Source: Escherichia coli
Lineage (GTDB): Bacteria > Pseudomonadota > Gammaproteobacteria > Enterobacterales > Enterobacteriaceae
Length of the DNA: 64,000 nt
Assembly (NCBI RefSeq): GCF_003334305.1
Contig: NZ_QOWS01000006.1
Reading direction: 5' to 3' (one strand)
Each line of letters begins with the position of its first letter. Positions within the stretch are counted from its first letter, which is position 1. This document shows, in pieces, positions 3,001 to 6,000 of the stretch. Made by a program: the position numbers.

Positions 3001-6000
3001 TGATCGGTCTTTTCATGATACAGAACGTTATCTACCGCAAAGTACTGCCCAAACTGGTCGTGTAGCGTTTCATGCCACTGTTTTTTTTCGGCCATGGGTT
3101 GATACCTCCTTTGTTAACACCCGTAAAAAAAGGGCGCAACATAATAGCTAACATTGACCGCGGATGCACGGTCAATATTTCTACAAAAAGGTATCAGGGA
3201 TTATTTGACGTAGGCAAGCAGGCTTAAGGAATCGCGGGCCAGGGCTTTGCATTTTTTAGCGACGGGAATGCCAATGCCGCTGAGATCGCGGTAGCTGTCT
3301 TCACCGAGGGCTTTCATGTCGAAGGTGTCGTAATTACTGAGATCCCACTGGTTTTGCTGGGCGAAAAAGACCAGTGCGCGACGAATTTGCCCGTTAGGTA
3401 AGTTCTGGTAACCACAATCGTTCTTCAGAAAGACAAAAACTGCCGTTAAATCGGCCATATCTTCGGCTTCAGACTCGCTGAGTGCGTAACTGTTTGCGCA
3501 AACGGCCATCAGGCTGCCGAATAACACTGTTCTGAAAAACGTCTTCATTGCTTCTACCAGGGGCTTAAAGAAGATAAACGTTAGCACACTGCGAGCGAGG
3601 CGACGACCATTATTGTCGATTAAATTGTGTCTGCGGCTTGACCTTCCCGTAAGGGGAAGGACTATGCTCAACGTTTGATTTTGTTTCGCCTGCTTAAGAA
3701 TAAGGAAATAACTATGCAACGTCGTGATTTCTTAAAATATTCCGTCGCGCTGGGTGTGGCTTCAGCCTTGCCGCTGTGGAGCCGCGCAGTCTTTGCGGCG
3801 GAACGCCCAACGTTACCGATCCCTGATTTGCTCACGACCGATGCCCGTAATCGCATTCAGTTAACTATTGGCGCAGGTCAGTCTACCTTTGGCGAGAAAA
3901 CTGCAACTACCTGGGGCTATAACGGCAATCTGCTGGGGCCGGCGGTGAAATTACAGCGCGGCAAAGCGGTAACGGTTGATATCTATAACCAACTGACGGA
4001 AGAGACGACGTTGCACTGGCACGGGCTGGAAGTACCGGGTGAAGTCGACGGCGGCCCGCAGGGAATTATTCTGCCAGGTGGCAAGCGCTCGGTGACGTTG
4101 AACGTTGATCAACCTGCCGCTACTTGCTGGTTCCATCCACATCAACATGGCAAGACCGGGCGACAGGTGGCGATGGGGTTGGCTGGGCTGGTGGTAATTG
4201 AAGATGACGAGATCCTGAAATTAATGCTGCCAAAACAGTGGGGTATCGATGATGTTCCGGTGATTGTTCAGGATAAAAAATTTAACGCTGATGGGCAGAT
4301 TGATTATCAACTGGATGTGATGACCGCCGCCGTGGGCTGGTTTGGCGATACGCTGCTGACCAACGGTGCAATCTACCCACAACACGCTGCCCCGCGTGGT
4401 TGGCTGCGCCTGCGTTTGCTCAATGGCTGTAATGCCCGCTCGCTCAATTTCGCCACCAGCGACAATCGCCCGCTGTATGTGATTGCCAGCGACGGTGGTC
4501 TGCTACCTGAACCGGTGAAGGTGAGCGAGCTGCCGGTGCTGATGGGCGAGCGTTTTGAAGTGCTGGTGGAGGTTAACGACAACAAACCCTTTGACCTGGT
4601 GACGCTACCGGTCAGCCAGATGGGGATGGCGATTGCGCCGTTTGACAAGCCGCATCCGGTAATGCGGATTCAGCCGATTGCTATTAGTGCCTCCGGTGCT
4701 TTGCCAGACACATTAAGTAGCCTGCCTGCGTTACCTTCGCTGGAAGGGCTGACGGTACGCAAGCTGCAACTTTCTATGGACCCGATGCTCGATATGATGG
4801 GTATGCAGATGCTAATGGAGAAATATGGCGATCAGGCGATGGCTGGAATGGATCACAGCCAGATGATGGGCCATATGGGGCACGGTAATATGAATCATAT
4901 GAACCACGGCGGGAAGTTCGATTTCCACCATGCCAATAAAATCAACGGTCAGGCGTTTGATATGAATAAGCCGATGTTTGCGGCGGCGAAAGGGCAGTAC
5001 GAACGTTGGGTTATCTCTGGCGTGGGCGACATGATGCTGCATCCGTTCCATATTCACGGCACCCAGTTCCGTATCTTGTCAGAAAATGGCAAACCGCCAG
5101 CGGCTCATCGCGCGGGCTGGAAAGATACCGTTAAGGTAGAAGGCAATGTCAGTGAAGTGCTGGTGAAGTTTAATCACGACGCACCGAAAGAACATGCTTA
5201 TATGGCGCACTGCCATCTGCTGGAGCATGAAGATACGGGGATGATGTTAGGGTTTACGGTATAAAAAGACCGTATTCGGAAATATGCCCGGATTTCTCCG
5301 GGCATTATGGTTACTTCACATCATCCGGCAGCGCATAAGCCACAATATAGTCGCCCATCTTCGTACCAAATGAACCGTGACCGCCTGCGGAGATCACCAC
5401 ATACTGCTTACCATTCACTTCATAGGTCATTGGCGTAGCCTGACCACCCGCTGGTAAACGACCCTGCCACAGTTTTTCACCGTTGCTCATGTTGTAAGCG
5501 CGCAGGTAGTTATCTGCCGTAGCGGCGATAAACAGCACGTTACCCGCCGTGGAGATTGGCCCGCCCAGCATCGGCATACCCATATTGAACGGCACCGGTA
5601 CAGGCATCGGGAACGGCATACTGTCCTGCGGCGTACCAATACGTTTCTTCCACACCACTTCATTGGTTTTCAGGTCCAGCGCCGAGATATAACCCCATGC
5701 TGGCTGTTTACACGGCAGACCAAACGGTGAGAGGAACGGGTTGAGCGTGACACCATACGGTACACCGTACTGTGGCTGAATGCCGGATTCCGTACCCGTG
5801 CCTTTGGCATCTTTCGGCTGCTCCATCGGGTTACCCGGACCGCGTGGGATCAGTTTCGAAACAAACGGCAGTGCCATTGGGTTGGCAATTGCCACTTCAC
5901 GATTTGGATCAACGGAAATCCCGCCCCATTCAAACATTCCCAGGTTACCCGGGAAGACCAGCGTGCCCTGTTCAGATGGCGGCGTGAAAATGCCTTCATA

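Follow-up and report, generated by a model that had tools for sequence, protein, structure and literature searches.

We analysed a 64,000-nucleotide stretch of Escherichia coli DNA (contig NZ_QOWS01000006.1 of assembly GCF_003334305.1; hereafter the window), in which a first-pass annotation made from the sequence alone had drawn attention to a methionine-rich insert in the gene for the multicopper oxidase CueO. The results of our analysis leave next to no doubt that what this segment specifies is the methionine-rich domain of CueO, the periplasmic cuprous oxidase of E. coli, and they show that it is composed of two parts, a conserved amphipathic Met-rich helix (approximately residues 357-375) followed by a low-confidence, length-variable loop (approximately residues 380-403). 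The Met-rich domain of E. coli CueO is already known from crystallography, deletion, point mutation and comparison between species. Mildly new are the conclusions that the methionines of the segment are under purifying selection and that its length is invariant within Escherichia, together with a polymorphism of a single repeat unit in Citrobacter. The elements of the gene that bear on these findings, in window coordinates, are as follows.

3714-5264, plus strand: cueO coding sequence, 516 codons and a stop, encoding the periplasmic multicopper (cuprous) oxidase (translation, PDB match, NCBIfam, Pfam and RefSeq annotation).
3714-3797, plus strand: twin-arginine (Tat) signal peptide, residues 1-28 (MQRRDFLK...AFA/AERP; Pfam TAT_signal at residues 1-20, mature PDB chains from residue 29).
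4776-4913, plus strand: Met-rich segment, residues 355-400 (translation and residue counts).
4776-4850, plus strand: conserved half, Met-rich helix, residues 355-379, with ligands of the copper sites Cu5 (M355, D360), Cu6 (M358, M362) and Cu7 (M364, M368, M376) (residues checked against the ligands in PMC11494321; AlphaFold2).
4851-4922, plus strand: variable half, disordered loop rich in His, Met, Asn and Gly, residues ~380-403 (model confidence; Citrobacter insertions).
5028-5036, plus strand: codons for D439-M440-M441 in domain 3, of which D439 and M441 are the Cu5 partners of M355 and D360 (residue check; role from PMC11494321).

Aligned end to end with the E. coli CueO of the PDB, the translated protein was identical at 513 of 516 positions (99.4%) and fully identical across residues 355-400, the three substitutions (E61 for G, L120 for P and N191 for S) all falling outside the segment. 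It scored 982.1 bits against the CueO equivalog NF008205 of NCBIfam over residues 1-516 (cut-off 525), while the second-ranked family, FtsP, reached 298 bits against a cut-off of 581, and Pfam recovered three cupredoxin domains (Cu-oxidase_3, Cu-oxidase and Cu-oxidase_2) in addition to TAT_signal. A PcoA/CopA-type copper-resistance oxidase was ruled out, since the match to TIGR01480 (copper_res_A) was limited to residues 1-163 and its 116.1 bits lie far below the cut-off of 478.95. Translation starts at the ATG at 3714, which opens the Tat signal MQRRDFLK with its RRDFLK motif; the TTG start at 3675 given in a mechanical listing of open reading frames, which precedes the real start of the Tat signal by 13 codons, was rejected. 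All the type-1 (T1) copper ligands (H443, C500, H505 and M510) are present, as are all eight histidines of the trinuclear cluster (H101, H103, H141, H143, H446, H448, H499 and H501) and all the accessory ligands of Cu5 (M355, D360, D439 and M441), Cu6 (M358 and M362) and Cu7 (M364, M368 and M376).

The gene is flanked by yacC and gcd, as in two E. coli loci inspected with their flanks. Of the 5426 complete E. coli genomes in RefSeq, 5425 have it annotated as cueO, including one with 100% DNA identity, and the remaining genome lacks any cueO match; the exact window protein was found on at least 1000 public contigs. At position 120 the window carries Leu (codon 4071-4073, IILPGG) where the crystallised K-12 enzyme and the eight other alleles compared carry Pro (IIPPGG); because the exact 41-mer around this codon occurs in 746 of the 5426 complete genomes, Leu120 marks an allele that is common in nature and is no error. 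Together, these results establish the window protein as a common natural CueO allele that has kept all its catalytic and accessory copper ligands, and nothing argues against its identity as CueO. Its cuprous oxidase activity and its role in copper tolerance would be expected from the 99.4% identity to the characterised enzyme.

The translation of window positions 4776-4915 on the plus strand given in the first-pass annotation was reproduced exactly, and its approximate tally of 14 Met and five His in 46 residues coincides with the exact counts. Its start coordinate was likewise correct, but the end required adjustment, as the 46th codon closes at 4913 and the two additional nucleotides are part of the Lys401 codon. 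The remaining 470 residues of CueO contain 15 Met and 18 His. The hypergeometric probability of finding at least 14 of the 29 methionines of the protein inside one given 46-residue window is 8e-9, or ~4e-6 after correction for the ~470 possible window positions. When open stretches of 100 residues or more were scanned in all six frames of the 64-kb window, every 46-residue window with eight or more Met mapped to a single place in the cueO frame, the maximum elsewhere being seven. The observed enrichment and the empirical scan thus indicate that the segment is not a chance feature. An 81-residue antisense open reading frame (4812-5057, minus strand) was dismissed as a by-product of reading the reverse complement of an ATG/CAT-rich coding strand, and nothing suggests that it is a gene.

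The two-part structure of the segment emerged both from modelling and from comparison with orthologs. In an AlphaFold2 model of CueO built on a 37-sequence alignment (mean predicted local distance difference test score, pLDDT, of 89.9), a helix spans residues 357-375 and pLDDT falls below 50 at residues 382-400, matching the CueO crystal structures, where most of the loop is left unmodelled (PMC12041951). Among Escherichia and Citrobacter orthologs, whose overall identity is 83-87%, the helix half is almost invariant, and all length differences are located in the loop after the GHM tripeptide.

To characterise variation in the segment within Escherichia, we queried public records with 260 nt centred on it and sampled 60 of the 5432 matching records evenly down the ranking, two records in the 90-95% identity band falling outside the sample. 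Fifty-eight sampled rows aligned 260-for-260 and another 258-for-258, none of them with insertions or deletions, and in a comparison of the full gene 29 of 30 sampled rows aligned 1551-for-1551. No length variant of the Met-rich segment was detected in the ~88 sampled E. coli genome records, which bounds the frequency of such variants at ~3.3% or less (95%), and none was found among the 15 distinct protein variants of the 90% identity cluster, which includes E. albertii and Shigella flexneri and in which all proteins have 516 residues. Tandem Repeats Finder, run on window positions 4600-5100 at its lowest score threshold, reported no array, the segment being only compositionally biased; the absence of a DNA repeat array in E. 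coli is in turn consistent with the stability of loop length in this species.

Several apparent exceptions were examined and discarded as length variants of the segment. The two weakest E. coli matches, both from complete-genome records, carry a disrupted cueO: strain L37 (locus L001) presents a stretch dense in indels and mismatches that is annotated as 'frameshifted; internal stop' and most likely reflects sequencing or assembly error, and strain A134_1EC (locus L002) has lost 137 bp at gene nt 672-808, a frameshifting deletion that does not touch the segment. Two metagenomic proteins of 470-471 residues (P0008 and P0010) were considered as natural counterparts of engineered Met-domain deletions, but their in-frame gaps of 45-46 residues lie in domain 2 and leave the Met-rich segment intact. 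In a further E. coli-like CueO (P0002) the segment is also intact and domain 2 harbors a 47-residue duplication. All three derive from single short metagenome or NCBI contigs and are probably assembly artefacts.

Nucleotide variation in the segment is dominated by synonymous change. Across nine E. coli alleles, 100 of 1548 sites are polymorphic, 10 of them within the 138 nt of the segment, which is not above background (Fisher P = 0.72). Nine of these 10 sites are synonymous, the single replacement being G399S, and none of the 42 nucleotides in Met codons is polymorphic, so that all 14 Met codons are invariant. Amino-acid variability in the segment did not differ from that in the rest of the protein, either in the nine-allele set (Fisher P = 1.0) or among the 15 protein variants, where four of 46 segment sites (M364V, A377T, G391D and G399S) and 30 of 470 sites elsewhere vary (Fisher P = 0.53). 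The first of these replacements is carried by a rare E. coli CueO variant (P0281; WP_322205664.1) that has thereby lost one crystallographic Cu7 ligand, in agreement with the published dispensability of Cu6 and Cu7 (PMC11494321). In addition, the allele of strain R1 (locus L010) differs from the window allele at 10 of 1551 nt, seven of which cluster within the segment (4802-4907; gene nt 1089-1194); all seven are synonymous and most share the state of other lineages, in what looks like a short recombination (mosaic) patch.

Between species the picture is one of extensive length variation, as the first-pass annotation had anticipated. Citrobacter CueO proteins range from 519 to 544 residues. 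In an alignment of 118 full-length representatives, obtained by searching 1.84 billion proteins that had been clustered at 50% identity, the insert (defined as the residues between S354 and I409) ranges from two to 76 residues (median eight) and contains from zero to 17 Met. Counting the window CueO, 11 of the 119 aligned sequences have at least eight Met in the insert. All 12 T1 and trinuclear copper ligands are retained in 43 of the 45 rows displayed, the exceptions being one Leu in place of the axial M510 and one in place of H448. Length variability of the Met-rich region between species has also been published (PMC11494321).

The Citrobacter loop exceeds that of E. coli by three to 28 residues, all located after GHM. 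In C. freundii the loop is encoded by a 15-nt tandem repeat, CAATATGAACCACGG, with each unit specifying roughly N-M-N-H-G, and the 544- and 539-residue alleles differ by exactly one such unit (four copies vs three), the 539-residue form being the common allele. There is also a variant of 536 residues (P0079). In the coordinates of its own locus, the array is located as follows.

2673-2732 of locus L012, and also present in locus L013: C. freundii 15-nt repeat array, CAATATGAACCACGG (repeat comparison of alleles).

The suggestion that the segment is a likely site of allelic variation therefore holds in C. freundii, where one 15-nt unit separates alleles, but not in Escherichia, where no length variants were found in the records and proteins sampled and amino-acid variability is at background level. 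We infer that loop length shifts between species through the gain and loss of short NMNHG-type repeat units, and this is plausible as a general mechanism of length change. More speculatively, the loop (residues ~380-403) may constitute an antenna module of tunable length, in which slippage of NMNHG repeats in taxa such as Citrobacter and Hafnia would adjust how well CueO removes Cu(I) from the chelators that prevail in a niche, the repeat having decayed and length having become frozen in Escherichia. We regard this proposal as rather unlikely; if true, the copy number of loop units would predict copper-detoxification performance across strains. The C. freundii alleles offer a natural series on which to test the notion that more methionines afford better Cu(I) capture.

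The role assigned to the segment in the first-pass annotation, that of a Met-rich helix and loop covering the T1 copper and binding extra Cu(I), is supported by sequence identity and by the literature. CueO couples the oxidation of periplasmic Cu(I) to Cu(II) with the reduction of O2 to water, and its Met-rich domain covers Cu-T1 and carries the extra copper sites Cu5, Cu6 and Cu7, with Cu5 formed at the interface between the helix (M355 and D360) and domain 3 (D439 and M441) (PMC11494321). The domain excludes phenolic substrates, phenol oxidase activity being ~33-fold higher once it is removed (PMC11494321). Deletion of residues 358-407 or 361-396 (Delta-Met) reduces activity on the strongly chelated Cu(I)(BCA)2 complex to 10-20% of wild type and on the weaker Ferene complex to 57-75%, and the same variants are close to wild type in activity on electrogenerated Cu(I) and in copper resistance in vivo (PMC11494321). 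Mutants in Cu6 and Cu7 resemble wild type, pointing to a negligible role of both sites, whereas a double Cu5 mutant is inactive (PMC11494321). Once excess Cu(I) had been removed, no extra copper was found to be stably bound, and the authors concluded that the methionines collectively and transiently recruit Cu(I) from strong chelators (PMC11494321). With its larger Met domain, the Hafnia enzyme oxidises chelated Cu(I) better (PMC12041951). Cells under anaerobic copper stress need the catalytic activity of CueO and not its capacity to bind copper, and the Delta-Met 361-396 variant complements nearly as well as wild type (PMC12510620). Structures of deletion mutants (2yxv, 2yxw and 8r4h) were among the PDB matches of CueO.

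Published structures and mutational studies of the same sequence give the following mechanism. The helix sits above the T1 copper site and keeps bulky phenolic substrates out, while Cu(I) binds at Cu5 (M355, D360, D439 and M441) and passes its electron to Cu-T1, from which it moves on to the trinuclear cluster, the site of O2 reduction to water. The many solvent-exposed thioethers, those of Cu6 and Cu7 among others, hold Cu(I) only transiently, forming an antenna that strips Cu(I) from strong chelators and feeds Cu5. The domain therefore facilitates catalysis and is not essential to it. The deletion test put forward in the first-pass annotation, under which functional relevance depends on whether removal of the insert alters cuprous oxidase activity, has already been answered by published work in two parts: activity on strongly chelated Cu(I) drops to 10-20%, but electrochemical activity and in vivo resistance are nearly intact (PMC11494321).

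Two observations weigh against assigning this function to the domain. It is dispensable for copper resistance under laboratory conditions, both aerobic (PMC11494321) and anaerobic (PMC12510620), and most distant CueO-like oxidases have no such domain or a tiny one, as reflected in the median insert of eight residues among the 118 representatives. Given the former, the putative physiological benefit of the domain is deduced from in vitro chelator assays and sequence conservation. Neither the fold nor oxidase chemistry requires the Met-rich domain.

Other explanations for the segment were weighed against this function in Cu(I) recruitment. Its primary role might instead be that of a lid or substrate filter, with the helix burying Cu-T1 and barring organic substrates so as to impose specificity for metal ions, and copper capture being secondary. 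The ~33-fold rise in phenol oxidase activity without the domain (PMC11494321) and the existence of the deletion-mutant structures 2yxv and 2yxw favor such a role, but a lid has no need for 14 methionines or for a disordered loop rich in His and Met, and it does not account for the fall in chelated-Cu(I) activity to 10-20% on deletion (PMC11494321) or for the improvement conferred by a larger Met domain (PMC12041951). Shielding and Cu(I) capture are, moreover, compatible, making the lid a co-function more than a true rival, and we consider it possible, if unlikely, that it is the primary one. It is improbable that the segment serves mainly in something other than turnover, whether as a copper sponge, in the metallation of apo-CueO before or after Tat export, or in docking a Cu(I)-carrying partner. 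A role of this kind was raised as open by the authors of PMC11494321, since Delta-Met variants still protect cells, but anaerobic stress demands catalysis and not binding capacity, with Delta-Met 361-396 complementing like wild type (PMC12510620), and stably bound extra copper is not detected once excess Cu(I) is removed (PMC11494321). Partner docking in particular is disfavored by the complementation data, according to the same authors (PMC11494321).

Two further alternatives hold that the segment is striking in composition only, or that it is unstable. The extreme diversity among homologs (2-76 residues, 0-17 Met) and the near wild-type resistance of deletion variants in vivo (PMC11494321) would be expected of a functionally neutral, low-complexity spacer drifting freely. 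Such a spacer is nonetheless difficult to reconcile with the invariance of all 14 Met codons and the synonymous nature of nine of the 10 segment polymorphisms among E. coli alleles, with a helix half that is nearly identical between Escherichia and Citrobacter despite ~83-87% overall identity, or with the fact that the essential Cu5 site takes two of its four ligands from the segment and that deletion of the segment causes a defect in vitro (PMC11494321); this explanation is already largely refuted, and we deem it very improbable. Equally hard to credit is a hypervariable or contingency-type locus in E. coli, with segment length differing between strains. Closely related genera do differ in this length, as do C. 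freundii alleles by way of the 15-nt repeat, but Tandem Repeats Finder detected no array in E. coli, the sampled full-coverage records all aligned 260-for-260 or 1551-for-1551 nt, with the two outliers explained by a noisy assembly and by a deletion elsewhere in the gene, and all 15 distinct proteins of the 90% cluster have 516 residues, without elevated variability. The striking composition of the segment is best understood as a genuine, selected feature of a known enzyme; it is neither an artefact nor a sign of a novel peptide, and in E. coli the locus is not hypervariable.

Upstream of the coding sequence, direct reading identified a promoter of the type recognized by MerR-family regulators.

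3638-3668, plus strand: MerR/CueR-type cueO promoter, with TTGACC at 3638-3643, a 19-nt spacer and TATGCT at 3663-3668 (direct reading).

An inverted-repeat search located a perfect 7-bp dyad, CCTTCCC/GGGAAGG, at 3642-3648 and 3654-3660, between the -35 and -10 elements, so that the region upstream of cueO combines the 19-nt spacer and the CCTTCC-N7-GGAAGG-like dyad that define MerR-type promoters. The CueR consensus used for comparison derives from the copA and cueO promoters, and on the basis of what is established for these two promoters we take the putative regulator of cueO in the window to be CueR. A sigma-70 scan of positions 3100-5400 that accepts spacers of 16-18 nt only returned no sites, missing the cueO promoter because of its 19-nt spacer.

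The gene was also encountered outside the chromosome. Plasmids of ~96-100 kb from E. coli and E. fergusonii, several of them from pig faeces, carry a complete cueO together with gcd fragments. In the one plasmid examined, the IncY plasmid pE6474.2 (NZ_CP116983.1; locus L011, 4624-10361), cueO lies between two direct copies of ISVsa5 that are 98.8% identical, and its Met-rich segment is unchanged. Homology to the chromosome begins there at the equivalent of window position 3665, so that this copy lacks both the CueR dyad and the -35 box. The remaining 'plasmid' matches to cueO were set aside as mislabelled chromosomes or megabase fragments.

Elsewhere in the window, three Rfam families scored above their gathering thresholds on the plus strand, as given below. 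No tRNA genes were found in the 64 kb.

47245-47290, plus strand: HtrA 5' untranslated region thermometer, located just upstream of a 474-residue open reading frame at 47285.
55448-55534, plus strand: t44 RNA.
56373-56482, plus strand: CssrA (Shigella chromosomal sRNA A; sRNA, small RNA), 136 bits.

Among known systems, the closest is the CueO of E. coli K-12 (YacK; PDB 1KV7, 1N68, 3OD3 and 3NT0; Delta-alpha5-7 mutant 2YXV/2YXW), which is the same protein, with the same ligands, gene neighborhood and promoter architecture, and differs by the three substitutions at positions 61, 120 and 191, all outside the segment. At the DNA level the window gene is ~97.2% identical to K-12-type alleles, and in one such allele (L005) all four differences in the segment are synonymous. 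The CueO of Hafnia alvei (PDB 8R4F; Delta-Met 8R4H), which matched the window protein at 727 bits in the PDB search, shares the fold, Cu-T1, the trinuclear cluster, Cu5, the arrangement of helix and disordered loop, and the facilitator role, but its loop has 22 more residues and a higher Met content, and it outperforms the E. coli enzyme on chelated Cu(I) (PMC12041951). The CueO proteins of Citrobacter freundii, C. portucalensis and C. amalonaticus are 83-87% identical to that of the window, retain the same helix and are encoded in the same place, adjoining a yacC homolog, whereas their loops are three to 28 residues larger and made up of NMNHG-like units, specified in the 539- and 544-residue alleles by the 15-nt tandem repeat, of which E. 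coli has no counterpart.

More distant parallels share clustered thioethers near a site of copper handling in an oxidising compartment. The Met-rich hairpin of the Thermus thermophilus multicopper oxidase (PDB 2XU9; a 178-bit match) also gathers thioethers near the copper site, but its insert differs in position, length and structure, and its deletion leaves both phenol and cuprous oxidase activity unaffected (PMC11494321). Plasmid-borne copper-resistance oxidases of the PcoA/CopA type likewise combine thioether clusters with an oxidising compartment, again with inserts that differ from that of CueO in position, length and structure. The 'Mets motifs' of CusF- and PcoC/CopC-type proteins, finally, may likewise resemble the CueO segment.

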